Positions 3,801 through 47,981 of a stretch of 64,000 nucleotides of DNA are shown one piece after another (the first letter of the stretch is position 1; every line of letters starts with the position of its first letter). A program made the position numbers and the translations under genes. The stretch comes from Balanoglossus misakiensis (Eukaryota > Animalia > Hemichordata): contig CM082597.2 of NCBI GenBank assembly GCA_040954595.2, forward strand, positions 2,900,265-2,964,264, read 5' to 3'. The notes under the pieces were generated by a model that saw only the letters and a program-made list of their open reading frames with translations, searched no databases and was not told the origin of the DNA.

Positions 3801-6800
3801 TTTAAAGGGTTGCATTTCTATGCATGGACAATTTAATATCGAATGGAATATACTGTTACTTAGCTCAATACTCATTGAAATTGTTTCTTGAAATGAGCGG
3901 CATTTTACATAATTACATAATTGATGAACTTGAAATTTGAATGGGAAAATTTTCACTCAGAATAAAAATAGGCCATATGTTATAATTTTGGCCATTTGTT
4001 TGTTGCCAATAAATGTAATTGCTGATTTGCATTATTATAGATTGAGAGCTGGTTTCATACTTTTTTTAATCTGGGCAAAGTTCCTCCATATGAGAATTGC
4101 CAATACTACTACAACAACAGCCAAAACTGCAATTGATGCCCCGAGGCCTATTGCCAGTGTGGTGGAGGGATCTGCATTCGATGGGGAGCCTGCAACAAAG
4201 CAAATAAAATCTGTAGATAACTGCTGCACTCATCGCCTTAGTCATTTGTTATTTAAATGTAAACACTATTTCCTTCAAAGAAATCTACCAATATACCAAA
4301 ATGTGCGCCTCGGCATGGTATAGGCATTATTACATTTTACACAAAACTTCATTTATGTCCAAAATGGCAATTTTGTCTAACCTTTTGGCTAAAAAAAAAA
4401 ATTGCATACCCATGATGCATTTACTCACCAAAAATCAACTTATATATACGTGCACCCTAGGCTAACGTCTTCAACAACACGTAATAAAAAGCGCAAATAA
4501 TCCAAGACGAATGACAAGGTCTTAAAGCATGAATGTTAGCGAGCAACAATATAGGAAATGGAAGTATGCAGTGTTAGACAAAAAGGAGTTGTAGATAAAT
4601 GAGTAAAAAATTTGAGGTTCTTCAGGATGGCAACCATTGTCATGGTAATACATACCAGTCGATTCATCAGGGGTTTCTGTATGGAAAGAGAAAATAAAAG
4701 ATTAAAATTTCTATGAAATCAAGGCTGTCACGAAGCATATTGAGAGTTAGTTTGTGAATTTTCCAATGAATGCCTATCCCACGAATATATACTTTGCATG
4801 CTTGATGCATATGTTGGTGTGTGGTTTGGATCACTTTATTTTTTTGAGTTAATATTTAGTGTGATTTTTTCCACATCTGAAACAAAATCTGCATTACCTA
4901 CCTAAGGTAGACTGGATTGCTGGTGGGTAACTTTGGCTTGCCCCAAGAATATTTGAACTGACAACAATAACGCTGTAATTTGTTTTTGGAAGCAAACCAG
5001 TAATGGTCCCAAAGTTAGTCGTCATTTTTTGTGTTCTTGTCCGGTTATCTCCATTTTCATTGTTTTTCCAATACTCCAGTTCAAAATCTTGGGTATATCC
5101 TCCATCAAACCCTGGTACCCATGAAAACGTTAAGCTTTCATGCGTTCTGTTCATCAAAATAACATTATCGGCTGGGTCCGGTTTTGCTGTATACAAAAAA
5201 GAGCAAGTTGGTATATTGCACAGTGTACTGGTACATGAAGGTCCTCGTAGGGGTACATTGATGTACTGTCGTCTTCTTGGATTTGGTCAAACATATCTCA
5301 GAAAGCATCCTCATCTTGAAATTGGTGAAGTGCAGCTGTCATCAGGTCGCCATTTCATAATTCCTGTCAACTTTTACTTGTGATTGCTGCTTAAAATTGC
5401 TAATTGAAAGGGCCTACATAGCAATATTTGTCTGTCATGGTTATTTAGAAAGTCACAACAGGTTCCTTATATTGCTGATATTGTAATATAGGTTAGAGAA
5501 GACCCCGAATTCTGCTAGTGCTAATACCTCGGTCGAAAAGATCTTTCGTTGTGGATAAGCATCGAACATTGGTCAAAGGGTTAATGAGGAAATGTAGATT
5601 AAAATAAGCATCTTTAAAAGAGAACAATTATGACAGTAAATGTCTATGACAACTAAAGTGAATAATAAAGGAGTAGAAACTTACTGTGGCCCGTTAGGTT
5701 CACCACAAAGACAATATCAGCAACATCGTTGACAGCATAACAGCGGTATTCACCAAAATCATATGAAGTAATGTTAGATATAGTCAGTGTACTTGTTGTG
5801 TTGGTATCCAATTGCCTTTCCTGAATCATGAACTTGTTGGTATTATTGTTAATAGTTCTGTTAGTTTTGTCAAACCATGTTATATTGACGGCTGGGTTAC
5901 TGTTTATTTCACAGTTTAGATCCACAGTTTCTGTTTCATCTGCTGTTCCTCTTTTGTTGTTATTAGCATTGATTATATATGGCTTATCTAAAAGAGAGAA
6001 ACACAGAACATTTATTCAGAAGTATAAATATATTGCATTAATATACCCTAACTGAATGCAGATCATGTCATAACATACCGTACTTACATATTCTAAACTC
6101 TCATTTTGTATAGAAATATCACTTATAATTATAGGATATCTTTGTCTCTATGTAATATAAACATTTTTCTAGGAAAATGAATATGTATGTAGTAAAAAAA
6201 GATATCTCTCAGTTTCTCCCATTTACAAGATAAAACTTGAACCCAACCATGTATTTATCCAGATAAACATAGTAATAAATCTGAGCAAAGATGCAAATTG
6301 TGCCATGAAACTAAGCTTTATGGAAAAGATATGGCTTTGTAAAAATTGTACAGTAAAATGCAGTGCCAGGGTCAAATAAAGTTGTCAAGCCAGGAAAGCG
6401 AACTGGAAATTTGATTAATTCTCCCTATAATTTCTTTAGCAATATATCATGCAATTGTTGATTTTATTTAGCCAATACCATCACCAATCTATGTGCTTTA
6501 AACAGTTCATAACTTGTGAATTGTATACTTACAGTAAACAATAAGTTGAAAACTATTCGACTCAGTTTCATGGCTGAAGTAGGTGTTTTTTCCATGGCAT
6601 TTGTATATGTTCATGTTCAGATATGGTTGCAACATAACCACTAGAGATTGCTCAATTATTTTCCCATGGAAGATTCCTTGAGATTCTTCAGTCTTCATTA
6701 AAATTTCATCACCACCGTCTATGATTGGCCTGTCATTCTTATACCATGATAATTCAGCTACAGGGTTGCTGCTTTCTGTCACACATGTCAGTGTCACATT

Positions 6801-9800
6801 GTTTCCTTCTAACACAGGAGATTCCTTGTCTGATATTAATGATGTGCTGTTTGGAGGAACTGAAATAACAATGTCAAATATACCTTATAAATCTAAAATT
6901 TAGAGACACACTTTTAATTTTGTGCTTTTAGCTCAGATAAGAGTTCAATGATAAGTTTGGAATGATACATTGCTTACTTGTCATAATAGTTTTGTAAAAT
7001 TGTTAAAAATTACCAGCTGTTACTTGGAAAAATTATTTGACTCGATGGCAACATATAAAGGCAAAACTACAAATCAAACAGCAAGATCATTGTCTGGAAA
7101 TGAATTTGTTTGTCATCAATTTTTTACTGATAAAACAACTATTACTATTATTAGGTACAGAGGTTGGCCTTGGACTTCCACGTTGCCTTGACCTAAAATC
7201 AAAACATCTAAGAAGGGCATGCCCCATAGGCTGCTAGGTAAAAGGTCACACCATCATAGCAAAAACCATGGTGATGCTATGGAGATTGCTGTCATATTTG
7301 AACATTGAGTGAAGTGTTCACGAAAATGTTGGTTTTGTCTTCATTATTTTTCTCTAGTTGAGTGGAATAACTGAGGTGTCAATGGAAAATAACCATGACT
7401 TTGGGTATTGTGATTATAAGGCATGTTTTGCCTAGGTAAAACAAAAATTGTTAATTTTACACACTTGCCTATGCAATTTTGTTACATTTTACATAAAACA
7501 ATTTCTGAATGCATATTGAAATCTGAAAAAGAAAAAACAACAACTGCAACACAGGGTATTGCTGTAAACATATGGCATTTTAGTTGAAATAGGCCAATAA
7601 GTTAACCAGACTTTGTTGACTAATTTTTGGATGAACTTTGACCTACTTTTGCATGTGATATCTCCTTGATATCTTTGTGTGAGCTTTGATTTTCTTTTGC
7701 CAATCTTACTTAAGATGGATCAGTATAGATGGGACCAAAATTTCCTTTCTGAAGTGGTTACATTTGAACTTTCATATTTATACTAGAAGGCAGTTCTTTT
7801 TAATTATTCAGGTTTGCAAATGATGAGCCATTATACCTCACATATATTCCATGTAAACAGTGTAAGTGCCTTAGACACTGATGTAAACCGGTAGAATATT
7901 TCATTGAAGCCGCCAACACATTTATTTTAAATATATTATATTACATAAAAAAGTCGTACGGAACGTGTTTTAAATTAGCCTTAAGTTTCAAGGCGCCCCA
8001 CTAACTGTGTACAGGTATGCGCTGTTATGCGGATGGTTTCAAGACACCCGCACTCCAACGCACGTACACAAAAAAAAGATGGCTGCTCACTGTTTCGGCT
8101 GAGCGGTTTACGATCGATTCTATCGGCATTTTGAATGCCAAGTAACATACAACACAAGAACTAACGGAAATGTAAGATGTATAATAATAAGGTTATTACA
8201 AAAATTCCGCAAAGTATGCACGAGGACATTAGCGCAGCGATACTGGGCGCTAATGTCCTCGTGCATACTTTGCGGAATTTTCGTGATAACCTCATATTTC
8301 ATAAAGGACACTTATAAAGATTGAGACATGCTAAGCTTTTACATGTAATATTGTATTTACTGCATATGCTACATTTCAGCGATGATGGTTATTGCAGTAT
8401 AGTACTCACAATGTACTTCAATCTGTTGCGTTGAAGAATTAACTGGGCGTTGAAATGGCAATGATGTCGACTGGCACTGAAATACCGCAGCATTATGAGA
8501 AGCATGAAGTGTAATTGTTAACTCCTGTGTTGTTATTTTGCCACCATGGTTTCCATCTGTTTCTTCGGGTGTCTTTAGGTTTTCCTGAGGGTTGTCTATA
8601 ATTTCAGTTTCATTTTTGAACCATTTGACTTCAGATGGAGGGTTACTGCTTTCACTTGTACATGTCATGGTCAGGTTGGTTCCAATTTTCTGTGCTACCG
8701 TGTATCCACTAATGAAAACTGTAGATGGTTGAACTAGAACAATTTGTTCATAAATTTATTAAACTATGAAAGGAAAATGTACACGTTGACCATAACAACT
8801 GTTATGAAACCTAAATTGTTTGTCTGATAATTCTTTATCTGCTTTGTTATAAAGAAATTGTGATAAGATGTTCATATAATTCATAATTTTTGTATAAATT
8901 GTTATCTGTTGAAGTTCTGTAAACATGAATGTATTATCATTAAAACTCCAAAAACAACAAACAAAAGAAATAAAAACTTACAGTACACAGTAAGCTTTAT
9001 TTCCTCAGAGTCAGATGTTCCTGGGAAATTTGCATTTTTTGCTTTGCATTGAAATGTTGCATTGTTGTGATTTGGTTGCAAGGATGATATTGTGAGCTGT
9101 TGAGTAGTAGTAGTTCCGTTGTGTTTACCAGTTTGTGTTTGGGCAGTATTTGTTGTTTCATGGTTACCACCAAGCCATTCCCCGCCATTTTTTAACCAGG
9201 ATATTGTAGCTGCTGGATTACTGCTTGCTGTATCACATGTCAATACAAGTTCTTCATTTGCTTTCTTTACACCCGAAAAACCACTCAGTGATGTTGAAAC
9301 TGGTGGAACTAAAAAAACAGTAAGAAGTCAATTTCATATACACAATCCAATCTGCATGAATAGAAAACATTGGGAAAATCATGTTGGAACACCAAAGTCC
9401 TTTGAACAGATATGTATGGTGATTTAAAATAATGTTGCAATGAACTTCTACAGAAAATTGAACAGGTTTTCAGTTGCAAGGCACTTACACTATTTACACA
9501 AACAAGTTAGATGTAATCAGTCACCATTTAAAAATTCATACAGAATTTCCAACTTGACAAGAAAAATCCATTTACAGCACTTTGCTGATAAATATTTAAA
9601 TTGGAAAATAAAATGCACCTTTTCTTTTTTATACTAGCATTGTCAACTGGAGTGTGATTTAGACTCTTACCACATTGATTTATGAATTTCCTTTTCATTA
9701 TTTTAGGGCTGAATTTGAGAAAACATTTCTCCGTGTGCGTATTAAAATCCATAGAGTATTTTACAGACTCAGTGGTTCATTTCAAGGTCAACTGCTTGGC

Positions 9801-12800
9801 TTGATATACGCATGCAATAAGGAGAATACTGTCTCAACTCAGGCTTTTTGCAAGTCTAGTCCAGAAATATGCATTAAAATCTAGTTTAAAAGTTCAATTG
9901 GATTGTTTTTCAACAAAACTACGACTGCAGTTTCTTATGGATGAGTTTCATTATTAAATTTTCACTGTATATGTCAATATTTTAAATTTAGATTTAACGA
10001 GTTCTATAGTATTGCACTGAGACTGACCCAGTAAAGATTGCATTTGATGACCTGATCATGCAAGCAATGTGGCAACTACAGGGGTTTTGTATGGATTCTC
10101 CATGTTAAACTGTTGTTCATTTCTATTAATTCTCCTTTGTCTGACACCAAGAACAAAACCGCAAACCGGCAAAAAACATGTGAAATTCTTCTGGTATGTG
10201 GTAGTACCCATCAAGGAAGTACTTCTTGCATCCAGAGCAAACAGTGAATATGTACCGGTACATTGCAGCCTTGTGGTCACTCCAGCCTGCAGCATGCCCC
10301 CTTGCAACTCTTACAATGGGAAAGCCTATCGCCTGTCTATTACCCAAGTAATTTCCTTAAATCATGTGAAAATTTTAATAATCCATCTAATACTATTTCA
10401 CATATGAAATGGCATGTACAAAATTTTAAAAAAAAAGTTACTAACAAAGACACAACAGGATAGTCCAATTAATTCGTTACGATGTCTTCAAAATAAGGAA
10501 ATAATGGAGGACACTGTACTTACATGTACTCATAAACTCCACGACAATGATAATCAAACATTTCATCATCTGCACAAGACTGGACATTTACACATTGACA
10601 AAAAAACAAAGCTTGCAACTTAAAGGCACGTAAGCTGCAACTGAATAAAAAATTTAAGTTTTAAATAATCTCATATATGCTTTTAATTATGTCTATTAAA
10701 TGCTATTTCATGATAATATATCAAGCTCAACACTTATTTATGACAAAATGGCCAAAAATTAAAGAAAAACGAAAATTCCTGCAATTTTAAAAAAAGTGCA
10801 ATATTGCGATGAAAAATGAAAATATGATGTCTCAGTGGTGTACATTTACTTCCATGAGCTCAAGTGGATGAGATCATGTTTTGTTTATGAAGTTTCATAA
10901 CCGGAAATGCAACATTTTCATTGTTTCTTGCATTTTCCCACGGTGGCGGCCATAATCGCTTGCGGCAAAGCTTTATTATTTATCTGGTTAAAACTTGCAT
11001 ATGCACTCATATTTAGGGTTTATAATGCTTGTGTATAGTTCACTGCCTTCATCTGCATGGACTAATGGTAGTGCAGTTTGAAACAAAAATTATGAAAATT
11101 ATCCCAAAAGTTACAGCTTACGTGCCTTTAAGGCGAAATAGCTGCCCTGGTTGATGCACATATTTCGAGATATGTTACCAGTCAAAGTTTGATAAATATA
11201 AATATCCTTTCACTCGAAATATATAGTCGTAGCCTAGGGTTCCAGTCTCATTAAAACTGGATCAAATAGAAATAATGCCAAATTCATCACAAAATTTTGC
11301 AGTGCAGTACGTGCCATTATAAGCTGCAGCAAAATATGGAAACAAAGATCATGCTGGTATTACAACACATGACTGTAATGTCAGGCTCAAGTCTTCTCGC
11401 ATTCACACTTGCCAACTGTTACATTTCTCCAAGGATGTGTACGGTGTATGACTAATGTTATGATAATATTACAACTGTATATATATATATATATTAGCAT
11501 GTATACTGTAAAAAAATAATTATATTATATCATGCTACCGTCTGCCATTCTGATTGGACGAGAGCTCAATCCAGCGATGCTAAAATACTCAATATAGCAC
11601 TGCTAAAACGGGCCCCTGAACTAGCATATGCGGCAGCAAAATGTGCGGTTAAACCACAGTCGCATGTATTTAAACCAAATGAATAAAATAAAAATACTGT
11701 TGAATTAACGGACGTTTTATTTTTGAACTTCTCTGTGGGAATATTTGGTATTTTGCCATGCATGATGCCTGTCTTGTCAATTTTGTCGTCTGCTTCATGT
11801 TTAATGCTCGATCCCAGCCGCTCCTTAATACAACCACACCCAACCACAAATAATGTAAATATCAATACTTACAGCTTACAATGAAAACTCCTAGCTGACA
11901 TGATGGTGGTGATGAAGCTGTCGCCATATTTGAAGCATAGCATTTATATGATGCCTGATTGTCTTTCCTTTCTAGAGTCCATTCAAAATTATTTGTTACT
12001 GTATTCCCGTTGTCTGGAGGTGCTGTCTCACTCACATTTTCATCAGTGTTATCATTAAACCATTGTAAAGTAGGCAGAGGATAGCCGCTGTCTGTCTGGC
12101 ATGTTATTGACATGTCTGAACCAAGCAGGTAGTTTGCTTTGACTGGAGCTACCTGGATACAAGTTGGCACATCAGGGGGGTCTGTCAAGAGAAAATTCTG
12201 ATATAGTCATTGTCAATTTAAGTAATAAAATGGACAGGCATATCACAAGAATTTGAAAAGCCCACAATATAAACACACAAGCATGAGCAAGTGCATCCAG
12301 TAAGGATATTGCATTTACTCTCATCATATCGTACGTATCAGCATAGGCATCACATCTCTGGAATGATCGAATCTTTTAGGAACATGTGATGTCGCATTAC
12401 ATTGGCATATGCATCACATCTGGCATCAGTTACTGTGATCGCATCGTATCACCAATCCATTTGCTAGTGATCCATCTATGAACACTTGTGCATTTGAAAG
12501 TTATGGTCGACACAAGGCTATTGTAGTCACCTTTACAATTATGTAAAATCTAGTTAACTGTTTGTGTAACTAAAACCAACAGAAGAACTGTATTAAAATA
12601 TAAAAGACTTTGAAACATTGTCAAAACTTTATAAATACATATAAGACATGTTTTGAAAGCATTTAAAATGACTCAATCAACATGAGTTAATATGCCCAGA
12701 TCAAGGAAATAAAAAAGGATGTAATAATAACCTCATAAACTAAGAAAAAATTTAACTGCAAAATTTAGTCGCCCAAACAGGTGCTTCATTCTACAATAAA

Positions 12801-15800
12801 GCAAGAACAATTTTGAATTATTGGGCAATTCAACAAAACATGCTACTCATGAATTTGCAGGTGAGAGAGGAAATTAAAACATCACACAATGTAATGCCAT
12901 TAACTGTCAGTTCTCTGTTAATACTTGACCTAATAAAAGTTCAAAGCTACTCATGGTGACGTCCATTGCTATATTCACCGTGGTGGTAGTACTACACTGT
13001 TATCTCACAAAATTTGAATGAATCCATGATTTTTTTATCATTTGCTTCTTGTAGCTCATGACACCTGCCAAAAAAAGCATTTAAATGTAGGAACAAGTAT
13101 TTTTCTGCAACAAGTGCAGAATTGAACTTTGTACTCATGAACTAATTTCTGCATGATAATCATATTAACCTTGGTTTCCTGCCCTCCTCCCTCACTCTAG
13201 GTAACACTTTGAGCTGAGCCTATTGTTTGTAAGTGTTGTTTTCTATAGAGTCACTTAGTCTGTTTTCCAATAGTGGGTTCCACTTTATCGAAATATGACT
13301 GTAGATGTGACATTTTATAGAAATCATTTATATAAATCTTATATGTTAATTTACTCACAGTAAATATCAAGTGTGATAGTGGTGGACACAGAATCCATGA
13401 AATTTGTCGCTGTGCAGGTCAAGTCTGTTCCACTGTCATTTCTGTAAGCTTTGTCGATAGTCAACACTGTATAATCGTCATTCAGGTAATATCTTGGGAA
13501 CAGATGCAATGGTTGGTTGTTCTTCTTCCAGGAGTAGCTAGGTGGTGGCCCACCATCAGAATGGCAACTTAATTCGGCTATTTGACCTTCAATGGATACA
13601 ACATCTCCCAATATTCTGGGTGTTGATGGGGCTACTGCTTCTGTAAGTTGAACACAATATGCCATTTATAGATATTTAAAAGATTGGATGAAACTAACAT
13701 TACAAAATATCTTATTAGCGGGGCAATTAAACTATTTTAGAAGGATGTTTCAATTGAGTGATTTGCCAGTAGATCTATATTGTATTATAAATGTTACTGA
13801 GGATGTAAATGTGCACGGTTCAAATCCCATTAGATGACCCTATCTTCATTCTGCAGGCATTCATCTAGCAAGTTAAAAAACAGGGCTTGACATACATTTT
13901 TTCCTTGGTAGTCCAATTGGGCTACCATTTTGAAATTGGTCCCCAGGGATTATGTCTGTAATTAGCCCATTGTATGTATTGAATGAATGATGTTTGTTTA
14001 TGAAGCAGATCATAATAAAAGCCATTTTTTGTGAATCATCAGTGCCTGTGAAGTAAAGTTTCCAGTCATTTGACATAAATACCTGCAATCTTAGTCTGAG
14101 GAAAGTGGTAATGAGTATACGGTAGCACCCAACAGTTTGTCGACATATGTACTTATGACTTGAGGTTTATATGTAAATTTATATGTAAATTTTGCAAGTT
14201 GCTGTGACTTTAAATGCTGTAATTTAGTAATTTGAAACTTTGTTGCATAATAAAGCTGCACTGTGGTCTTTTTAATTTGCATGTTAAAGGTGATAATGGA
14301 GCTTTTGTCCAGTTAGAGACCATCCATATCAGTGTGTCATCAGAGCGACAAAGATGGATCAGACATCACAGAATTTGAGGCCACTTAGGGCTAACAATTT
14401 TCGATCCCCGTATATATAGCCATATGGATTGTGACAATTTCTATAAATTTTCATGTTTGTGGTCAGAATGTCACAGACAACTATATTCAGAATAATATTT
14501 TATGAAAATAAAATACCTTTCATCACACACTTGGAAGGGTAAACTGCTGCTGATGGTTCTGATGATTGCCAATATATTATTTATTGGTCTTTTGAGAACT
14601 GACCCGTTCACCCAGTGATCAGTTAAATCAATGGTGAATTGCCCAGTGTATTGCCAGTTATATGTGCAGGGGCTCGTCGCCTTGTCTGGAACTTTGAGCG
14701 AGTATGGATGTAGTTCTGCGTGAAGGTGTGGATGGAAGAGAGTGCATGTTGTAGAAGTACTGTGAAAGTGTGGGCTCGCTATCCTGTTATAGGCCTAAAT
14801 ACTACCCTGTACCTAGGTAGACAGAGATCATGTTTTCTTTGAACAAAATAAAATAATCCGTGTTTAGCAATAAAGTTGTGATCACTTAAGATGGGGCACC
14901 CTTATACTTTTGCTGTTACTAGCCCCTGGTCTGATATTCATGGTGGTTTTGTTCAAAACTGAGTGTACAGTTTCATACAGGCACATAGCAACCAGCAAAA
15001 AATTATGGGTGCCCCATCTTAAGAAGGTAATAATAATGATGGAACTCCAGGACCTCTGACTGGAATCTCTGAGATTCAAAATGACTGAAACTTGCCATTT
15101 TAAGAGGCTTTCGATAGGGACTATTTTATCTCTATTTCATATATCACCTGTGAAGAATACCACGGGCAACAACAAGGTAATCAGCAGTACATATGCAATA
15201 ATACAATTGTACTAAATAACATTAAAATTGATAAGGAAAAGTTACTGAGATTGAGAAAAGAGGAAATAAAAGATGCTAAAAGTGGCCCTTTTATTGATTA
15301 TACAAGTTAAGGTAGAATGTCTAATTTTCTACTTAAAACTGGTTTACTGGAAGTATAAGAGTTGGGTTTCTCTTTTAGAACAATGTAATTTAGGTGTCAA
15401 GGTACATACAGAAATACATACATCCATGCAACGTCAGTATTTGCCACTTTTTATTGTTCTCGCAGTAAAGATATTAGCCGGTATTTTCACCGAGTGAAAA
15501 TATGGAATATTATTATACACCTACTGCTGTAACCTATGGAGTTCTGTAATTCAATAATTGGCAGTATCAGCATACAATAATTATTCAAATGAGGACGCGG
15601 AGTCCCATAACACCAGGGTTATTGAACGCATTTTGACTTTGACCTCACAGGTGTTCAATGTAAACAATGATGATATTAAACCCTACTCTGACAAACATTT
15701 ATATAAAAAAGTACACAGTTGTTATTAATCTAAACTACTGGTGACCCTAGATGCGAAATAAGTCAAAATCTGCGATGAAATTTCAGTCGAAGGAATATGT

Positions 15801-18521
15801 GAACGAACAGGTGAGCATGTACATTTCAAGTTCCAGAACGAGCTCAGCACTAGCAGCGTAAAACGTGGCGTGCAAGACATCGGCAGCTCGACACTAGCAT
15901 CACCTGATGCGCAAGGTCCAGGCGCATTCGATATGCAAATTACTTCATGGCGGTGTCTGAAAACTAGTCCGATAGCGGCCAATTTATTCTTTATCGTTCA
16001 TCAAGGACGTCGGGAAAAGGTGTATAATAATTAGGTTATTCACATAATAACGGGATTTATGTCCTCGTACATTGTACGCTTCAGTATTGTCCTCGACGCT
16101 GCGCGTCTCAGACAATACCTGCGCTGTACGATGTACATTTGTACTTGGACATAAATCCCGGTATTTTGTGAATAACCTTATATCATTATACATCTGGCAA
16201 GGAGAACAATAGAATTTAGTGTGCATTATAAAAGTCGTACGGAACGGTACGTACGGAACGCGTGTTAAATACGCCTTGAGTTTCAAGACGCCCTAACTCA
16301 CTGTGTACAGGTATGCGCTGTTATGCGGACGGTTTCAAGACACCCCCAGTCCAACGCACGTAAACAAAAAAGAAAGATGGCTGCTCACTGAGTCAACTGA
16401 GCGGTTTTTGATCGATTGTATCAGCATTTTGGGTGTTTTGAAAGCCAAGTAACATGCAACACAAGAACTAGCGGAGATGTAAGATGTATAATAAAAATTA
16501 GCGCAGCGCATCACCCTCCGCTACGCGTCGGGCGATGCGCTGCGCTAAATGTCCTCGTGCATACTTTGCGGTATTTTCATAATAACCTCATAATAATTTC
16601 ACCGTGCGCCAGAGCATATGGTGTTGTGGTGAACTAAGTTCTCGGCGCATTTTCGCAAATCGTACTGTTTTATAAGTATCCATCGATAACGCGTCATATT
16701 CGAGTGATTTGTCCCTATTTTAAAGCGAATACGAAACGTTATCGACCAAACTTCGTGTAACAACCCCTAAATATAGATAAAGGACATACATATACATCCA
16801 TTCACTCATGCCTATGTAACATGCATACCAATGTTCACACGTGTGCGCGCTCATACACACACAGACACAAACAAATCGGCACGACATTAGCTTAGTAATA
16901 CGTGTGTGTAAATATGGGAGGTAAAAATTACTGCCATACAAAAACCCGAAATCAATGGTTTCTCCTCTTAAAAACAGACAGATTAAATACATATCGTCCT
17001 TGCTATACTCGCATATAGGGTAGCATGGAGCATAAAAAAATTCAACATGAATACCAACTACACAGAAGAGGGTTTGCTTTGCAAGTTTAAATTGTTTGCT
17101 GTCAAACCATATTACCATTGTAAAATGTCATGGATCTATTATGTGATAATATAAATAAACTCACGTTTAACATCCAAAGATAAAGACTCACTAAATACGA
17201 CTGCCAATTCTGTTACTGCACACCAGTAGATACCTCTGTCCGCCACTTCAACATTATTTATGCGAAGGGAGAATTTGTTTACAATGTTATGTCGTGTAAA
17301 TGACGCATTTGTGTGTATATTGCCAAGTAGGTCCCGAAGTATTATTGATACAGAACTGCCGATATTTGGTCCGAAGTACCAACCAGGTGTTGGATTATTG
17401 AACCCTGAATAGTCACAGTACATAATCGCAGTTTCCTGCTCATAAACGGACACGTCATCACCAACTATTACCAATCTCTCGGCCCCTGAAAATGAAATGA
17501 GGTACACATATCAAATCGACTTAAGGATGTACGATCTGTAAAAATAAATATATTGTCATTTCTTTTAATTATGGATTTTTGGTGTTTTCCTTTGTAAGCA
17601 TTATCTTAACCTAATAAAAGAAAGGGGGCACCACGCTTGTTTTGAAATACAAGGAAGTAAATTTTGGCGATAATTGAAGAAACTGCCGAGTCGAGTCAGC
17701 ATTTTTCGCCACTGGTTTGTCAGGGCAAAACATTGAACGAAGTTTATCTCAAAATAGTGCGCGGTGAACATACAATTTTGTCTGATCAATGAATTTATAT
17801 TTACTTGACTGAGCTATGTGTAAAATTTCATTAACATGACAATAGAAGCAATTTGTTTTCTAGCAATCTCAATGTAATCCAAAGGGGAGAGAGACACATG
17901 CGCACATACTTAAAGGTTAAAAGACAAGAAACCAGACATCGTTGGTCGATTTTTCAAAATTTACTGAACAGCTTCTTTGAATATGGTCATATAAACGTTC
18001 TCTGTGAAAATTACAAAATTGATACCTAGGTTTCTGTAAACCATTACAAACGCAATATGGCACTTTGACGCATTTGATAGTATTATGCAATTCATTTGCA
18101 TTACGTTTGTGGGATACACAAGTCAACACATATCGTGTTTGTCTACTCGTTCTTTAAAAGCAGTCCTTTTAATCTCTGGTTGTCAAATTAATAGATGTGT
18201 GAGTTGTTTGTTAACAGTCATTTTTGTTCTAAAAAACACAAAAAATGACTAAATAATCCTCTCTTGGATATGTACGCTTTACGTCTACCATTTCTCTCCA
18301 CCTTCGAGATTTAGAAACCAATGGCAAGGTTTAGGCACAATACCAAGAGCGTTATAATAGTAATTGCTAAATGCTGTTATTATGACCCATCCTGTGTTAT
18401 AAAATGTATGTTCCCAATAGTCATCGTAAAAGTTTCCCAAGGCTTACTCACCTATAGTCTGGTATCTAGTAAGAGTAACCAAAGTCCATACAATCCAATA
18501 TGAGCAAACTGAATTAGCCAT
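814..18521 (-). CDS. Gene A: nephrin-like type I IgSF receptor (signal peptide, V-set, 6 further Ig, FN3, TM, ~270-aa Tyr/Pro/Lys-rich tail ending in two ITIMs); proximal-cassette isoform
   Basis: In-frame GT-AG exon chain read by hand: leader 18452-18521 (MANSVCSYWIVWTLVTLTRYQTI); V 17165-17485; Ig 13359-13640, 11873-12181, 8982-9308, 8410-8733, 6533-6859; I-set 5685-5987; FN3 4902-5186 (WVPGFDGG...LLPKTNYSV); micro-exon 4656-4676; TM 4061-4189; cytoplasmic 3545-3566, 2975-3087, 2347-2463, 2073-2156, 1416-1690, 814-999 (LTYADL...VAYAMV, stop). Ig C...W...C motifs are in the ORF track. Confidence 0.88.
3168..3338. mobile_element. TA-flanked MITE
   Basis: tactgtaaaatggaaaattttcacga ... tcgcgaaatttgcccgttttacagta imperfect TIRs. 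Confidence 0.7.
8190..8292. mobile_element. Palindromic MITE of a dispersed family (relatives near 16033-16178, 16500-16590, 20280-20370, 45345-45410, 28455-28480)
   Basis: aggttattacaaaaattccgcaaagtatgcacgaggacattagcgc..gcgctaatgtcctcgtgcatactttgcggaattttcgtgataacct is a near-perfect hairpin; the flank 7940-8190 also recurs at 16220-16500. Confidence 0.7.
10620..11131. mobile_element. Non-autonomous DNA transposon with TTAA target sites (Kolobok-like termini AGG...CCT)
   Basis: ttaa-aggcacgtaagctgcaact ... agttacagcttacgtgcct-ttaa: 19-bp TIR with one mismatch, flanked by TTAA. Confidence 0.8.
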
Positions 18522-19774
18522 TCCGCCTTGATTGACTGACAAAATTCATTCAGCCTTGAGCTTTAATTCTTGCACATCGCAACCCAAATAGTTTAACCAT
18601 CAACTCAGATCGCAATGCGCAGATGGGTCAGATCGGTGGCGCCCTTTAAACGGGCTGAACCGGCTATCTGTACATGCGTATTACAACTAGTCAGCAAGAT
18701 AAACCTTGTGGCACGTATTTATGATTGTATTAGTGGTTTAAACTTGCAAAGTGTTAACGGATAACATTCTCGTACAGTTATCGGCATGTCTTCCCACAGG
18801 TAAGTGCAAGATGAGATAGATTGTACCGTGTCAAACAACAAATACTTGCAACTATGTGGAGTGTGATTGTTGCGGTTGCCACTGCTAAACTAATTGTATA
18901 TAGGCTTGAAGAAAAAAACAGAGTATTCACAGACTTTTCCAATTACTCACAATTTTTTGTTTTGTTTGTTGACCAGCGGCACTTATGATTATATGGTTTC
19001 AGAAATAATAAAAATGATCATTTGTTCCGGAGGAACTGCATGTCTCATTGCATCACCATGCAATATAACTGCTTGCAGGATGTCAATACTAAAGAGAAAT
19101 CGCGGGAACGAACGGTTTATAAAAACATTCTGACCGAGGAATATTTCCCATAACAACCGTCTACGAGGCAATAATACATTCTGCTTGGTCTGTCCCAAGT
19201 CTCTGGATCGATTGTATCCACTTGGTATAAGGACTGTACTGTGGAACACATATGAACGTTAGTTCAGGCTGTGGTATGCCTGAAATGGCCGTGATTTTAT
19301 TACGGGTATTGCATTATTGGGCCATTATTTGGAACAATGAAAATGTACCTGTACGTATCAGTGTCCATTTTTGTGATGACCTGGCAGCCAATGTTTTTTT
19401 TTTCATGCATGGAAGTTCTTCTGACACGTTTCAACTGATTGTATTACAACTCCATACAAGAAAAGAGTAAGGCCAAAAAAGTAGATGGTTTCCCATCCCC
19501 GCGCGCGTCAATTTAGATTAACCCCGCACCAACCTCGTGTTTGGCATCTCAGGGGAAAATGGAAAAGGTGCACCAGTCCGTAGACAGGCGTCCTATAAAT
19601 AGCATCATAGCCTAGTAACATTCAGCACGCTGGTCGCAACACCTATCTAAACTTGAAAAAAGATGTAGCAACATTTGTTAGAGGTCATGCCATGTGTCCG
19701 CGCGTGTGCAGAATACTTGCTCATGGCAGATATCGATGTTCAGAGGCAATTAGAGATGTCAAAAAGTAGCAAAA
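16050..19774. repeat. Tandem segmental duplication copy 1 (intron, V exon, leader, promoter of gene A)
   Basis: Direct match to 19839-23324; ORF-track translations recur identically at a 3550-bp offset (e.g. 18321 vs 21871, 19252 vs 22802). Confidence 0.93.
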
Positions 19775-20472
19775 AAAGGCAGGCGTCTTTTTTATTTTGT
19801 TTTCAGTAGCAAAACATTAATTTCTCAATTCTATCAGGACGGGATTTATGTCCTCGTACATCGTACACTTCAGTATTGTCCTCGACGCTGCCCGTCTCAG
19901 ACAATACCTGCGCTGTACGATGTACTTGGACATAAATCCCGGTATTTTGTGAATAACCTTATATCATTATACATCTGGCACGGAGAACAATAGAATTTAG
20001 TGTGCATTATAAAAGTCGTACGGAACGGTACGTACGGAACGCGTGTTAAATACGCCTTGAGTTTCAAGGCGCTCCAACTCACTGTGTACAGGTATGCGCT
20101 GTTATGCGGACGGTTTCAAGACACCCCCACTCCAACACACGTAAACAAAAAAGAAAGATGGCTGCTCACTGAGTGAACTGAGCGGTTTTTGATCAATTGT
20201 ATCAGCATTTTGGGCGTTTTGAAAGCCAAGTAACATGCAACACAAGAACTAGCGGAGATGTAAGATGTATAATAAAAATTAGCGCAGCGCATCACCCTCC
20301 GCTACGCGTCGGGCGATGTGCTGCGCTAAATGTCCTCGTGCATACTTTGCGGTATTTTCGTAATAACCTCATAATAATTTCACCGCGCGCCAGAGCATAT
20401 GGTGTTGTGGTGAACTAAGTTCTCGGCGCATTTTCGCAAATCGTACTGTTTTATAAGTATCCATGTATGATA

Positions 20473-20580
20473 AAGGGGTTGTTACACTTAGTTTGGTCGA
20501 TAACGCGTCATATTCGAGTGATTTGTCCGTATTTTAATCGAATACGAAACGTTATCGACCAACTTCGTGTAACAACCCCT
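20473..20580. mobile_element. Small MITE-like hairpin, intact in duplication copy 2, left arm mostly missing in copy 1
   Basis: aggggttgttacacttagtttggtcgataacg ... cgttatcgaccaacttcgtgtaacaacccct. Confidence 0.55.
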
Positions 20581-20971
20581 AAATATAGATAAAGGACATA
20601 CATATACATCCATTCACTCATGCCTATGTAACATGCATACCAATGTTCACACGTGTGCGCGCTCATACACACACAGACACAAACAAATCGGCACGACATT
20701 AGCTTAGTAATACGTGTGTGTAAATACGGGAGGTAAAAATTACTGCCATACAAAAACCCGAAATCAACGGTTTCTCCTCTTAAAAACAGACGGATTAAAT
20801 ACATATCGTCGTTGCCATACTCACGTATAGCATGGAGCATAAAAAAATTCAACATGAATACCAACTACACAGAAGAGGATTTTCTTTGCAAGTTTAAATT
20901 GTTTGCTGTCAAACCATATTACCATTGTAAAATGTCATGGATCTAATATGTGATAATATAAATAAACTTAC

Positions 20972-22071
20972 GTTTAACATCCAAAGATAAAGACTCACTA
21001 ATTGCGATTGCCATTTCTGTTACTGCACACCAGTAGATACCTCTGTCAGCCACTTCAACATTATTTATGCGAAGGGAGAATTGGTTTACAATGTCATGTC
21101 GTGTAAATGACGCATTTGTGTGTTTATCACCACTTAGGTCCTGAATTATTATTGTTACTGCATTGCCAGTATTTAGTCCTAAGAACCAACCGGGTTGTGG
21201 ATTACTGAACCCTGAATAGTTACAGTACAAAATCACAGTTTCCTGTTCATAAACGGACACGTCATCACCAACTATTACCAATCTCTCGGCCCCTGAAAAT
21301 GAAATGAGGTACACATATCAAATCGACTTAAGGATGTGCGATCTGTAAAAATAAAAATATTGTCATTTCTTTTAATTATGGATTTTTGGTGTTTTCCTTT
21401 GTAAGCATTATCTTAATCTAATAAAAGAAAGGGGGCACCACGCTTGTTTTGAAATACAAGGAAGTAAATTTTGGTGATAATTGAAGAAACTGCCGAGTCG
21501 AGTCAGCATTTTTCGCCACTGGTTTGTCAGGGCAAAACATTGAACGAAGTTTATCTCAAAATAGTGCGCGGTGAACATACAATTTTGTCTGATCAATGAA
21601 TTTATATTTACTTGACTGAGCTATGTGTAAAATTTCATAAAATATGACAATAGAAGCAATTTTTTTTCTAGCAATCTCAATGTAATCCAAAGGGGAGAGA
21701 GTTTAACAAACAACTCACACATCTATTAATTTGTCAAATTAATAGATGTGCGAGTTGTTTGTTAACAGTCATTTTTGTTCTAAAAAACACAAAAATGACT
21801 AAATAATCCTCTCTTATGTACATACGCTTTACGTCTACCATTTCTCTCCACCTTCGAGATTTAGAAACCAATGGCAAGGTTTAGGCACAATACCAAGAGC
21901 GTTATAATAGTAATTGCTAAATGCTGTTATTATGACCCATCCTGTGTTATAAAATGTATGTTCCCAATAGTCATCGTAAAAGTTTCCCAAGGCTTACTCA
22001 CCTATAGTCTGGTATCTAGTAAGAGTAACCAAAGTCCATACAATCCAATATGAGCAAACTGAATTAGCCAT
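20972..22071 (-). CDS. Second (distal) leader + V-set cassette of gene A; probable alternative first exons
   Basis: Leader 22002-22071 is identical to 18452-18521. V exon 20972-21292 is open, 321 nt, phase 1-1, with intact ttcag acceptor and gtaagt donor. No constant Ig exons of its own lie between it and the proximal cassette. Confidence 0.75.
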
Positions 22072-23993
22072 TCCGCCTTGATTGACTGACAAAATTCATT
22101 CAGCCTTGAGCTTTAATTCTTGCACATCGCAACCCAAATAGTTTAACCATCAACTCAGATCGCAATGCGCAGATGGGTCAGATCGGTGGCGCCCTTTAAA
22201 CGGGCTGAACCGGCTATCTGTACATGCGTATTACAACTAGTCAGCAAGATAAACCTTGTGGCACGTATTTATGATTGTATTAGTGGTTTAAACTTGCAAA
22301 GTGTTAACGGATAACATTCTCGTACAGTTATCGGCATGTCTTCCCACAGGTAAGTGCAAGATGAGATAGATTGTACCGTGTCAAACAACAAATACTTGCA
22401 ACTATGTGGAGTGTGATTGTTGCGGTTGCCACTGCTAAACTAATTGTATATAGGCTTGAAGAAAAAAACAGAGTATTCACAGACTTTTCCAATTACTCAC
22501 AATTTTTTGTTTTGTTTGTTGACCAGCGGCACTTATGATTATATGGTTTCAGAAATAATAAAAATGATCATTTGTTCCGGAGGAACTGCATGTCTCATTG
22601 CATCACCATGCAATATAACTGCTTGCAGGATGTCAATACTAAAGAGAAATCGCGGGAACGAACGGTTTATAAAAACATTCTGACCGAGGAATATTTCCCA
22701 TAACAACCGTCTACGAGGCAATAATACATTCTGCTTGGTCTGTCCCAAGTCTCTGGATCGATTGTATCCACTTGGTATAAGGACTGTACTGTGGAACACA
22801 TATGAACGTTAGTTCAGGCTGTGGTATGCCTGAAATGGCCGTGATTTTATTACGGGTATTGCATTATTGGGCCATTATTTGGAACAATGAAAATGTACCT
22901 GTACGTATCAGTGTCCATTTTTGTGATGACCTGGCAGCCAATGTTTTTTTTTTCATGCATGGAAGTTCTTCTGACACGTTTCAACTGATTGTATTACAAC
23001 TCCATACAAGAAAAGAGTAAGGCCAAAAAAGTAGATGGTTTCCCATCCCCGCGCGCGTCAATTTAGATTAACCCCGCACCAACCTCGTGTTTGGCATCTC
23101 AGGGGAAAATGGAAAAGGTGCACCAGTCCGTAGACAGGCGTCCTATAAATAGCATCATAGCCTAGTAACATTCAGCACGCTGGTCGCAACACCTATCTAA
23201 ACTTGAAAAAAGATGTAGCAACATTTGTTAGAGGTCATGCCATGTGTCCGCGCGTGTGCAGAATACTTGCTCATGGCAGATATCGATGTTCAGAGGCAAT
23301 TAGAGATGTCAAAAAGTAGCAAAATGATTTGTTGAAACTATAGAAAAACAATATGAATGTAACAGTAATAGTAATATGCACAATTTCGTTGCGTGAACCA
23401 TCCTGGAAAATGGCATTTGTACCACAAAAACTGGAGTTTTGAATTGCTGTAGGTGTACGAATCCTGTAACTAGGCATGCGCAGTGTACAGTTCTGAAAGG
23501 CACACCACGTATTGTGATCCATCATGTTTATTTCCGTACTATGATGACTGAGGCCTTTTGGTCTAGTGGATGTAAATGCCTAGCGTTCTTTGACAGAAGT
23601 GTATCAAGACAAGAGGAGTGTTGTCCACTGGTGATCGATTTATCCTACCGAATGATTGCTAACAGTGCTGTGCATTTATCTCTGCATGCATTCCTATATT
23701 CTCATGTTGTTTGCGCGTTGTGTTGATGGTTTAAGCAAAAAAAAGCAAAAACAAAAAAAAACACAAAAAAACGTGTGACCGTATCATTTTTGCAAGATGC
23801 CTAGGATGAGCAACAAACGTTTTTCTGGCATTAGCTGCGGTGGGAGTTCTAAATCGAGAAGGTTTACCTATAGAGGGCGCCTTCCCGAAATGGATCGGAT
23901 GAAACTACCAAAGCATCGAGACTTAACACTTAACCAGTGACTTAACAACATAAAGCTACACACCCCTACTAGAAAATGGTATGAATTCTTGAC

Positions 23994-24029
23994 AGGTTGA
24001 CGGACGGAAGTAGGTTGACGGACGGAAGT
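23994..24029 (+). promoter_or_regulatory. Tandem 18-bp repeat with two ETS/GABP-type CGGAAGT sites, between genes A and B
   Basis: aggttgacggacggaagt x2, upstream of an acceptor (ttaatgcag, ~24524) that precedes gene B's ATG exon. Confidence 0.45.
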
Positions 24030-24540
24030 AGTAGCTCATACTCAATTTGATAGACTCCTCCGTTTACACTTCGGAGCCAAAAAACTAACGTGTAACCAAT
24101 GTGAATATTGTAGAGTATCCGTTTGCATCTGATAACTGAAAATGCAGGTCACATTAATACTGCCAGATTAACGGTTAGGGACTGTAGACAATAAGATTCC
24201 CACATATCTACAAATATCTAAACTGCTTTCTGGTTTAGGGGTTAAGAACATTAGCCTTCCTGAAAAAAACAATGTTAATTCTGCTCTCAGCTACTGTTTA
24301 GATGTAGAGACAGGCGGTAAACAACGGGATGCGAACAGCAGAGACCAAGAAAAGGCAATGGCACAAGGGTATCCGTCGTCGTTACAATATTACGTGGAAG
24401 CATCCTACTTGCATGTCTGTGGTGATTACATAATATTTATAATACAATATAGTAAATCTACCACTAAAAAATAATGACAAAATCTTGTATCCATGTTTTC
24501 CTTTTCTTCTCTTCTTTAATGCAGATATCAAAGGTATTAT

Positions 24541-27500
24541 ATGGATATATTAGGAATGTACTTCAAATTGAGTATTTTCGTGTTCTTCTTTGTAACTACA
24601 ACCAGGCCTGTTAAATCTGGTAAGTATTGACTGTCACAACTGCACTTATGCCGTTCTATGGTCACTACGCCGTACTCAATCAGTTATAGCGTCCTCGTCT
24701 TCATTTCGTTTTTTTTATTTATTACCCGATTAATTAGCGAGCTAAACTCACCAAAAACTAATAAGTTCCTATCCTTCACAAATAGAAGCTGTATACCATG
24801 CGCAATAGTCAGTAAAGCAAATACGCAACAGCTTCGCGGTCTGCTGCACGACCAGACTGATGTGACAATGAGACAAACAAACAGACAGACATCAGGCGAC
24901 AATCACACGCGCGGGAACACGTTGAATTGTTTAAATATCTTTGTGAAAGTGAAAAACATATTAAGCCATTCACACTTAAACACTGTAAAGAAGTTTGCAA
25001 ATATTGTCATCTAACTGTTCTTATTTTGATTATTTTTATGTTTTAGCATGTGACGTCAACGTCAACATCGAAGAACCAACAGTTAACGCAATCGAAAAAG
25101 ACAATGTTACATTGAGGTGCACTTATCAACTTGATAAGAGTACTTGTACTCAGGTAGAATTTTCTTGGGCAAATGCTGCTGGTGACGTCATTGCATACAA
25201 GCTTAATGAACTCGCCCCCACTTATTACGATGATTTTGGACGTTTTCGACTGGTGGAAAGTGGTTTAGATCTCCACATTGAGAGCGTTGAGGTTGGGGAT
25301 AATGACACATACACATGTTCTTTTGCGATCATATTCGGTGCACCTGATTCTGGTTCTGTTCAGCTAAATGTTCAAGGTATGTGTGCAATTTTATCTTCAA
25401 CACAGCTTAGAATAAATTGATCTGATTAAAAAGTTGAGATAAACATGTTGCAAGATCTGTTCACCTAATCATCATCATTACTCCGTCGAAATATATAAAG
25501 TGAACAACATCAGGTTTATAAATGTCCAACGAAGTACACAATACTGACTTACAGTACATTATCATTGAATAGGATTTGACAGATATATGCTCAAATTTCA
25601 AACACCAATGTCTTCGACATACATATACTAATATTTTACCTATGCTTACGTTAGCTGATCAACACAACATAGATCTGTATAGTCAGCATTGTTATTGTGC
25701 CAAATTTTATTTCAAGTCCAGACTAGAATTCATTTGTCAACAAAAACAATGGCAGTTACACATACAGGCTATGTCTGCCAAAATTTACCTTGGTCAAATG
25801 TCTGTCATGTTCATTCCTGTATAAAACACCTTCGGCAGACACAATTGGGGATGGTGTGATGTTTATGGTATAGTACGCATATACATTATCTATTGTCTGA
25901 TTCTTGTTTGTGCAACTTGTTTTGTGTTTAGCTATTCAGGCCACAACAACTCCGCTATTTATTGTATTCGAAAATCCAGTACCACTAAGAAGCAATGCAT
26001 CATTCAATTGCACATCGACGGGAATTCCGGATCCCGAATATAGATATTTAAAGGACGGGATTGAAATTCATGGGAACGACAAATATTTCTTCAGCGAAGA
26101 CAGAACGCAATTTACCATTTCATCGATTGAGATTGGTGACAAGGGAAGGTATACGTGCGTTGCAGACAATACCGCCAATCAGCCGTCATCTTCATTTATA
26201 GATCTTGAAATAGTTTCCGAACGTAAGTATTAAGACTTCATTTCAGAGTTAACTTAAACACACTTACATATTCATATTTATCATTCAACACCACCTGATG
26301 ATAACAATGGACGTTGAATATTGATACGTGTGAGCTATAAGTTCAGGGATAGTAATCATTCAAACACAGACACATTTAAAATTAACTGAATATGGGTTTT
26401 ACTGTGTAACACAGGGAGCTGTTACAAGTTGTAATACATGTATAATAACTATAATTAATCACTTTTATTTCAGGCATATTTAAAAAAAAAATCTGTCCAG
26501 AGGGAAAAAACATAAAAACACGGGGGAATAAAAAAGAAAACCCAGAAAGAAAATATGCACAACTCCAAAACTGCAGAATAAAGAAATAATACAAAGAGAA
26601 AAAAGAAATTAACATGATCTAAAAGACACAAAACTCTAAAAATACGAGATTGCAAACCAAAACACTGAGCGTCAGACATCAGTAAGATCTTGAAAAGACT
26701 ATTATTATGTCCGGAAGACATTCTTCCAATTTTGTCATTGTGCAGATTTAGTGTAATTATCATGGTTACTAATTCGACTTATTAATAAAATTGACAAATT
26801 AAACCATTAACACATTAAACACGTAGTATAAAATATTATAAATTCACACAAAAATGTTCTCGTAAGACTGAGGCTAGTAAATTGAATTTGATTTCTTTGC
26901 TAAACAACGCACGAATCTGCATCCACCTTTTATTGCCTACATAAGTATATAATATATATTCACGTATACATAGTTTGATCAAGACTGAAAAATGTGCTTA
27001 TCAATCAATAAATTATCACTGAATTCAGCTTTCTTGCAATGCATCGGATTCATGTTATCCTGTCCCATCTTTATGAAATCACTATTTGTAGTAGGTTCCA
27101 TGAGATTTGTTCAATAATTCCAGATTTATAGCAGTTATTGTTTCACCAATGTTAATGTGCTGGTTTTCGCTGATAAATTCAAGTTTATTGATTATTCATG
27201 AAAATAAATGTGGTAATTCTTATATTTGGATGTGGTTCTCCGTAATATATTTCTATAAGCCCAAAAGCTTATTACACCGTGCGTAATGATTGGTTGATAC
27301 TCTGTGACATGTTATAGAATAAAAAGTACTCAATCATTTGCTTGTATGGTTACATTTTCAGTGCAAGTGAATAGTCTGACGACCGGGGAGAAAGTCGCAA
27401 TAGGTGTGTCCGCTTTTATAGTTGCAATAATTATAGCTGTCATAATAATATTCGTGTACAAATATGTTAAGGTAAGTTTACTTGGCTCACAGTCACTCCA

Positions 27501-27839
27501 GCGCCTATCTAGTATATCATTTCTATTTTCCATTTATCTTTGTATTTTGAGGCTTCTTTACACAAATATCCTGTAGTAAAGGGTGCAATATATTGGAAAT
27601 TAGCAGATTTATTCCCATGCTGGCAGCGATAGTCTTACTCTGGTTACATAATGCAAAACCATTTATCACAACGAATAAGTTAAACATTATGCCTTGGTTT
27701 TAATTGTCGACATTGGGGTCCTGATTGTGTAGGTCCTGAAGATAAGGAACAATGTGATTATTTGCAATTAGACAACTATGTAGGAATTAACAATAATGTC
27801 TTTTTCATATGTTATGTTTTGTAGGGCAGAGGCAATTGA
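24541..27839 (+). CDS. Gene B: short IgSF membrane protein (signal peptide, V-set, C2/I-set, TM, ~8-aa tail), divergent from gene A
   Basis: Leader 24541/24556-24619 (MYFKLSIFVFFFVTTTRPVKS, gtaagt); V 25047-25376 (LRCTY..FSW..DNDTYTC); Ig 25932-26222 (FNCTSTGIPDP..DKGRYTC); TM 27362-27471; last exon 27825-27839 (GRGN-stop). Splice phases are compatible. Confidence 0.85.
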
Positions 27840-36139: not shown

Positions 36140-36790
36140 AATATTTCAATTCAATTCAATTTATTTTCACTTTCAATTTTTACATTGAATGGTGAAAAAT
36201 GTACTGATAAAGTGAAAAAAGCAGGTAGGAAAAATAGCACTAGTCAAGTCCACCCCAGCCCCCCCCCCCCCCCATGGTGAACAGTAGAACACTTGGTTAG
36301 TAATACATACAAAAGAAAAAAAAAGTCAAACTATACTTTTTCCTAACAAGGATTTCATTTGTTTCTTAAATGAACATTTTGACCTTGTTGAGCGCGTATT
36401 TTCAGGAAGTTTATTCCAAACCTTTGCTGCAGTGTACTTTATGGAATGTTGGCCAGCATTACTGTTATATTTCGGAATAAAAAGATCGCCGATATCTTTT
36501 GATCTGGTATGATAAGAGTGTTGAATAGGAACGAAATACTCTGAGAATCCTGGTGGAAGCTTGCCATTGAGAGCATCATGAACAAACAAGGAAAGTTGAA
36601 GATCACGTTGCTTGTATACATTCAAGATATGTAACTCATTAAACAATGGTGAAGAGTGTGCAAGACGGTCTGATCCCGCCAATACATGTACAATTCTTTT
36701 CTGTGTGAGAAGTATTGGCCTCAAAAAAGATAAATAAGTATTTCCCCAAGTTTCTATAGCATAGGAAATGTGTGGAAGGATAAAACAGTA
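36140..36790 (-). mobile_element. 5'-truncated non-LTR retrotransposon (CR1/L2-group), C-terminal ORF2 fragment
   Basis: ORF 36326-36724 has QKRIV..HSSPLFNELHIL..HSYHTRS..WNKLP..SFKKQMK, typical post-RT motifs; a (ttcaa)n tail lies at ~36144-36160. Confidence 0.8.
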
Positions 36791-47863: not shown

Positions 47864-47981
47864 GTCTTCAAAAGGTTTTAGGTTGATATGAATATGCACC
47901 CTCTGTAATACCATTTCACTCCTGTAGAAGAAGGTCATTATGAATATCTGGTGATGTCATTTTGTCCCATGATCCAAATCA
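45620..47981 (-). repeat. Inverted segmental repeat arm 1 (5' end of gene C)
   Basis: Reverse complement matches 54037-56452 across exons and introns; ORFs 46903-47304(-) vs 54778-55179(+) and 46634-46816(+) vs 55253-55435(-). Confidence 0.92.

Follow-up and report, generated by a model that had tools for sequence, protein, structure and literature searches.

Two divergent V-set exons in a tandem leader–V unit of a predicted inhibitory receptor gene of the hemichordate Balanoglossus misakiensis

The window analyzed here is a 64,000-nucleotide stretch of Balanoglossus misakiensis DNA (assembly GCA_040954595.2, contig CM082597.2, positions 2,900,265–2,964,264), and it contains a minus-strand gene, gene A, for a predicted receptor with immunoglobulin (Ig) domains. 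The 5′ part of this gene occurs twice, each time with a leader exon and an exon for a V-set Ig domain (V1 and V2), and the two V exons differ from each other more than the introns beside them do. Why should coding exons have diverged further than their own non-coding flanks? The original prediction read this as a signature of diversifying selection. We consider it probable on balance that V1 and V2 are old allelic V variants of a predicted inhibitory receptor, which were kept by balancing selection and joined in cis by a recent tandem duplication of leader and V. The comparison is of two sequences in one assembly, the window is without any N, and positions are those of the window. The elements of the tandem unit are as follows.

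16050–19774 and 19839–23324: the two copies of the tandem unit (leader and V-set exon on the minus strand), from self-comparison of the window
17165–17485, minus strand: exon V1 (phase 1/1), encoding a V-set Ig domain (PF07686, E = 7e-11)
20972–21292, minus strand: exon V2 (phase 1/1), likewise encoding a V-set Ig domain, with its splice sites and core residues intact
18452–18521, minus strand: putative leader exon 1, by its sequence a predicted 23-residue signal peptide with a phase-1 donor
22002–22071, minus strand: leader exon 2, identical to leader exon 1
18273–19774: identical block of copy 1, leader and 1.25 kb upstream, likely promoter
21823–23324: identical block of copy 2
16050–17164: intron downstream of V1, with a copy at 19839–20971 that is 2.5% diverged
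19775–19838: junction of 64 nt between the units, with no match of more than 12 exact nucleotides elsewhere in the window
21703–21765: fold-back inversion of 31 nt at the site where approximately 250 nt are missing from the leader–V intron of copy 2
16030–16592: repeat-like element with 42-nt inverted arms (16030–16071 and 16140–16181)

As assembled, the unit is a mosaic of three levels of divergence. The leader and upstream blocks, predicted to be identical over approximately 1.5 kb, differ at 0 of 1502 nucleotides, which bounds their divergence below 0.2% (95% bound). The V-flanking introns differ at 28 of 1100 positions downstream and 7 of 408 upstream, or 35/1508 (2.3%) when pooled, and an extra 92-nt piece of the unit has 6 differences. 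These introns had been described as nearly identical; the compared parts also contain 6 indels, and the copy-2 leader–V intron has lost about 250 nt, with the 31-nt fold-back in place. The V exons are both 321 nt long with canonical AG/GT ends and no indels between them, and differ at 31/321 nucleotides. The 23 residue differences counted by hand were reproduced (23 of 106 whole codons, or of 107 including a split Gly), in 25 nonsynonymous and 6 synonymous codon steps. The predicted excess of exon over intron divergence was hence confirmed by formal comparison (31/321 against 35/1508, Fisher p = 1.7e-8). Divergence between the copies begins 23 nt beyond the junction. Within the exon, 27 of the 31 changes fall in two tracts, codons 19–56 and 93–97, which were picked after the data had been seen; the remaining 189 nt carry 4 (2.1%), approximately the intron level. 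The tracts have pN = 0.24 and pS = 0.12, against 0.014 and 0.04 outside them. The V2 unit is a partial 5′ duplicate, an orphan leader and V that has its downstream exons in common with V1, a point which the original prediction had missed.

Both exons encode V-set domains (PF07686 scores of 42.7 and 41.3 bits for V1 and V2, cut-off 26), in which the canonical residues C23, W35, D82, Y86, and C88 are present, together with the B–F disulfide, the C-strand Trp, the D-x-G-x-Y-x-C motif, and the C′ and C″ strands. V2 has an additional N-glycan sequon at N24. AlphaFold gave a predicted local distance difference test (pLDDT) score of 33.5 on a single V sequence, and the model used instead was built on a 16-row alignment (pLDDT 89). 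It exhibited strands A 4–7, A′ 11–13, B 19–26, C 32–37, C′ 45–50, C″ 56–58, D 65–68, E 72–75, F 84–92, and G 95–105, of which the names were assigned by us; exposure was judged from strand alternation. The best Foldseek matches were V-set domains including CRIg/VSIG4 and TIGIT, with template-modeling scores of 0.76–0.86 in the top ten.

The GFCC′C″ face is usually the ligand-binding surface of V-set domains. The changes had been predicted to cluster between the first Cys and the C″ region and in the FG loop, and they are clustered beyond chance: the densest 38-residue window carries 17 changes (permutation p = 0.0008), and segments 32–59 and 84–105 (C–C″ and F–G) are changed at 17 of 50 residues against 6 of 56 elsewhere (p = 0.005). 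The FG cluster by itself, 4 changes in 5 residues, was not significant (p = 0.40). Nor are the framework segments identical as had been stated, with changes in strand B (A19V, M21L, D24N) and in strand D and the DE loop (N66D, K70Q). Changed columns are less conserved across the family (0.37 against 0.50, p = 0.015). When poorly conserved columns only were compared, using 13 of the 16 rows (those omitted being V1, V2, and a single member of the near-identical pair from genes B and D described below), a narrower set of C–C″ and the FG tip was changed at 14/31 against 4/39 (p = 0.002). All 8 invariant columns are retained in both copies, and the replacements are milder than random (BLOSUM 0.48 against −0.38, p = 0.009). 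The family majority sides with V1 at 9 sites and with V2 at 10, with ties at 4. Judged by their sequences, neither copy is clearly the derived one, and both look functional and appear to have remained under constraint. Neutral decay of V2 was rejected, given the 10% divergence against a 2.3% background, the zero stops and frameshifts, and the conservative changes. In Hydractinia Alr2, selected sites are located on the C/C′ side (PMC8282982).

Substitutions that were mostly synonymous or randomly distributed would have spoken against selection. They were clustered, and 25 against 6 were nonsynonymous, although this share is no higher than site counts predict (Fisher p = 0.40–0.66; pN 0.10–0.11 and pS 0.07–0.08 by the counting method). 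A nonsynonymous-to-synonymous rate ratio (omega) of 0.5 or less was rejected (binomial p = 0.009), as was 0.3 (p = 9e-5). The synonymous sites of the exon also exceed the introns (6/79 against 35/1508, p = 0.014), so that exon-over-intron divergence is not itself proof of selection; it gauges the depth of the genealogy, not omega. Hypermutable CpG sites were rejected as a cause, with CpG context at 6 of the 31 changed positions, an observed/expected CpG ratio of the exon like that of its flanks, and transversions also in excess.

This bears on the account in which, after a single duplication, the V face changed quickly under positive selection and the introns serve as the clock. Nonsynonymous sites do exceed the introns (25/239 against 35/1508, p = 5e-8), as do transversions (16/321 against 12/1508, p = 2e-6), and the synonymous excess depends on few sites. 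The dN/dS check against intron divergence that had been proposed accordingly gives omega of about 4.9 with the clock fixed at the intron distance. However, that model is rejected in favor of a free clock (likelihood-ratio test p = 0.008–0.017) because the synonymous sites are raised too, and one age cannot yield segments of 0%, 2.3%, and 20% in one unit. We regard this account as very improbable. The synonymous excess and the restriction of divergence to tracts indicate instead a greater age for the V cores than for the DNA around them, and the pattern reads as older V cores set within homogenized flanks, through balancing selection or conversion, rather than as fast change after duplication. 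Exon dS above the flanking intron distance is the pattern of balanced polymorphism of the kind seen in the major histocompatibility complex (MHC), and it rests here on 6 sites. In the MHC, intron distance below exon dS has been read as balancing selection with recombination within the locus (PMC1939875).

A second pair of V exons in the window provides an internal replicate of the V-over-flank pattern, as judged from its sequence.

45622–47981, minus strand: 5′ part of gene B (leader–V–I–C2), a receptor with an ITIM/ITSM-consensus tail (motifs spelled out below), 91% identical to gene D
54037–56453, plus strand: 5′ part of gene D, a receptor tyrosine kinase with Ig domains

Genes B and D have in common an inverted 2.4-kb copy, in which leader–V–I–C2 is 91% identical; further down, amino acid identity is 32–47%. 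Their V exons differ at 26/345 positions against 17/736 in the downstream introns (p = 9e-5) and 22/600 in two C exons (p = 0.013), with a cluster of changes at F–G and a synonymous excess (9/91, p = 0.001). The layout is that of paired receptors, with the kinase as the activating partner of the ITIM-type receptor. Gene D has an additional C2 exon at 56740–57147 (plus strand), 47% identical to the preceding one and absent from gene B and from the Saccoglossus protein P0154.

The same copying is relevant to an account of patchwork conversion, in which one V exon received a tract from an unseen and more distant paralogue, or all but the tracts was homogenized, and loop variability reflects low constraint without positive selection. 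Ectopic copying has been active at the locus, as the B/D tract exhibits; the V1/V2 changes, including synonymous ones, are grouped in blocks, which extend to probably buried residues of strand B; and the lower family conservation of the changed columns fits low constraint. On the other hand, the window provides no donor, the remaining V exons being 26–32% identical. The pN/pS of 2.0 in the tracts is high for paralogues under purifying selection, and the front-strand enrichment survived the conservation control. We take this account to be rather unlikely.

Several results weigh against our allelic and balancing reading. Codon-model omega is 1.28–1.49 for the whole V exon (p = 0.37–0.58 against 1) and 1.4–1.9 for the front strands (p = 0.26–0.52), in neither case significantly above 1; it is 0.58–0.67 for the B/D pair, and the pooled tracts of both V pairs gave p = 0.70 for nonsynonymous against synonymous change. 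Two of the six synonymous changes occur in two-base codon changes, and with only the other four the comparison with introns gives p = 0.125. The B/D leader–V intron differs at 34/493 (6.9%), nearly the V-exon level, and against all introns the B/D exon excess has p = 0.015. Fourteen of the 23 V1/V2 replacements are conservative (positive BLOSUM), and about five (A19V, M21L, F37L, L49I, F97I) are probably buried, by strand alternation. There are only two V sequences, and their allelic origin is itself inferred. The rejection of omega of 0.5 or less and the C–C″/F–G enrichment support a binding face of the V domain that has evolved in a non-purifying way. Diversifying selection, as in the original prediction, or balancing selection on the V domains is likely, though not statistically shown.

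The exons downstream of V1, which the V2 unit shares, are as follows.

4902–13640, minus strand: shared ectodomain exons of gene A
13359–13640 and 5685–5987, minus strand: I-set exons
11873–12181, 8982–9308, 8410–8733, and 6533–6859, minus strand: C2-like exons
4902–5186, minus strand: fibronectin type III (FN3) exon
4061–4189, minus strand: transmembrane exon
814–2463, minus strand: cytoplasmic exons, tail of 227 residues with 9 Tyr

The gene A model has 15 exons, from 18521 down to 814, with canonical splice sites and an open product of 1119 residues, ordered as signal peptide, V, I, four C2-like domains, I, FN3, transmembrane segment, and the 227-residue tail. Behind the single transmembrane segment, the tail carries three motifs of the ITIM (immunoreceptor tyrosine-based inhibitory motif) consensus [ILVS]xYxx[ILV], applied as in PMC9546547: SAYANV, LTYADL, and VAYAMV, two of which sit in the last exon (814–999). 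TAYADV fits what we take to be the consensus of the immunoreceptor tyrosine-based switch motif (ITSM). The tail frame uses an alternative acceptor at 2463 in place of a 22-nt AG/GT-bounded candidate micro-exon after the transmembrane exon (3545–3566, minus strand), which was dropped as it breaks the frame. Gene A is predicted to encode an inhibitory recognition receptor, by motif consensus and analogy. V2 can be spliced onto V1 (1226 residues) or straight onto the first I-set exon (1119 residues), both open to the stop; these isoforms are in frame because of phase symmetry, and hence are no evidence of expression. A possible acceptor lies 14 nt upstream of each leader ATG (18522–18540 and 22072–22090, minus strand), where a V2 join is in frame with leader 1, which may be chance. 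A GC-rich stretch with promoter-like motifs is located 70–160 nt upstream of the ATG (18590–18680, minus strand) in both units.

How could two alleles have come to stand in tandem? In the history that we favor, a break in a hairpin-forming repeat would have been repaired with the 64-nt filler, duplicating a 3.7-kb promoter–leader–V unit. A single crossover or conversion near 18273 would then have brought in another allele's V and introns; after such an exchange, the leader blocks would still be identical, and the V regions would stand at allelic distance as far as the junction. Heterozygosity in outbred hemichordates is 1.3% in Ptychodera and 0.5% in Saccoglossus (PMC4729200), and the 2.3% intron distance, being of this order, was counted for an allelic origin. 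Each unit's putative promoter would drive its own leader–V onto the shared exons (leader 2–V2–V1–rest, or V2 alone). One haplotype could thereby provide two binding specificities with the same ITIM tail, likely acting via SHP-type phosphatases. The ligand may be an adhesin of microbes or a self ligand that is polymorphic; we favor recognition of pathogens or of self against non-self.

The same sequence would be produced by an assembly phase switch. V1 and V2 would then be alleles from the two homologous chromosomes, which either a switch of haplotype within the identical block or a false join has set side by side, and the 22% amino acid divergence would be real as allelic divergence while the cis pairing would not. 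A run of 1502 nt at 100% beside introns at 2.3% resembles a collapsed or polished segment, and the chance identity by state of two alleles is merely 3–12% under a simple coalescent. Haplotigs had to be purged from one long-read hemichordate assembly, and another was made with high heterozygosity in mind (PMC11175523). Against this, the window is free of N, the junction is 64 nt of unrelated filler with no overlap, and tandem copy 2 starts within the left arm of the 16030–16592 inverted repeat. Overlap assemblers do not usually make unrelated filler at joins. The filler and the break in a repeat arm speak against a false join but do not bear on a phase switch within a genuine duplication, and we consider an assembly origin unlikely.

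The likely pattern, old variants joined on one chromosome, is known from immune and self-recognition genes. In mosquito ace-1, a heterogeneous duplication fixed two alleles of one locus on one chromosome (PMC6121789), whereas the present duplication is limited to promoter, leader, and V, the rest is shared, and the allelic origin is inferred. Exon 2 of MHC class II likewise has intron distances below exon dS, read as balancing selection, hitchhiking, and intron recombination (PMC1939875); its fold is different, and here there are two sequences, with omega not significantly above 1. Gene A also resembles Hydractinia Alr1/Alr2, an invertebrate cluster with an N-terminal V-set domain, more Ig domains, an FN3-like domain, a transmembrane segment, ITIM tails, and one domain per exon (PMC9546547). 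Further likenesses are partial duplicates that lie upstream of Alr2, exons shuffled through conversion or unequal crossing over (PMC9546547, PMC8282982), and, in the first domain, positive selection at its C/C′ side (PMC8282982). However, Alr domains are described as without many canonical V-set motifs and in numbers of one to three, whereas gene A has canonical motifs and seven Ig domains, and it is not assigned to the Alr family on these grounds. The comparison rests on architecture and motifs.

Genes B and D, with a converted N-terminal ectodomain in common and opposite tails, resemble paired receptors. SIRP-alpha and CEACAM1 are such receptors with V and C2 domains and ITIM-type tails. The conserved Arg of Siglecs lies on the F strand. 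No Arg occurs at strand F residues 84–92 of V1 or V2, which speaks against Siglec membership by the sialic-acid Arg (PMC13324755). Paired Siglec-5/14 and Siglec-11/16 also have V and C2 domains, ITIM-type tails, and conversion (PMC13324755); the partner here is a receptor tyrosine kinase, not adaptor-coupled, and FN3 is present. Nephrin and SYG-2, of which we take the architecture to be an Ig series with one FN3, a transmembrane segment, and a Tyr-rich tail, share this layout, and a YDDV motif occurs here; however, gene A has seven Ig domains and belongs to a multicopy, fast-evolving family. The seven PDB matches included weak ones to SYG-2 and Kirrel, and that to SYG-2 (E = 5e-4, one C2 exon) was weaker than that to SIRP-alpha (3e-5). 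Gene A might also serve in adhesion in the manner of nephrin, with this weak match behind it.

Related proteins occur among hemichordates. Of the ten best-aligning V proteins, nine are from Saccoglossus and Glandiceps and one is from a sea urchin, at 26–34% identity. Phmmer gave 159 matches, and among the 150 listed none exceeded approximately 39% identity over at least 70 residues. Word-index homologue searches with V1, at near and longer lengths, and with a kinase exon found nothing, and Atlas gave generic V-set clusters only. Predicted hemichordate proteins named CEACAM-like, hemicentin-like, or Cad96Ca-like (XP_077863486.1, UniRef100_A0ABM0MW92) share the V subfamily and domain order, though the names are automatic and identity to the genes here is only 30–40%; the searches made found no function for them. 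Gene A is 38% identical over 349 residues to P0026, and the Saccoglossus protein P0154 corresponds to gene D from V through kinase.

Other features surround these genes. A short V–I–TM gene (about 24533–27576, plus strand) stands head to head with the upstream leader of gene A, 2.5 kb apart (region 22071–24533), and another short V gene occupies 48142–50699 (plus strand). A 162-residue open frame (36326–36814, minus strand) looks by eye like the C-terminal part of a long interspersed nuclear element (LINE) reverse transcriptase. The repeat at 16030–16592 has relatives at 7955–8296 and 45346–45603. Non-coding repeats of this kind, rich in inverted arms, occur at the tandem breakpoint and by the end of the B/D tract (45622), which suggests that they seed rearrangements.

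In vertebrates, polymorphic receptors are known that combine a V domain with ITIMs. Cnidarians have them too (PMC9546547); for hemichordates, none of the open-access papers listed by the searches made concerned a polymorphic V–ITIM receptor or such a cluster. A more far-reaching picture, which we hold to be speculative and doubtful, is that a polymorphic recognition complex comparable to Alr or the MHC exists in acorn worms: clustered V–Ig receptors with ITIM tails paired with a tyrosine kinase through converted ectodomains, V faces under long-term balancing selection, and two alleles caught in cis as promoter–leader–V cassettes on shared constant exons, like a protocadherin-type variable-exon array at its birth. 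In the Ambulacraria, the locus provides a concrete candidate for a recognition system with inhibitory and activating sides. Should the cis pairing prove real, it would be a natural Haldane fixed heterozygote, made by duplicating the variable domain only.

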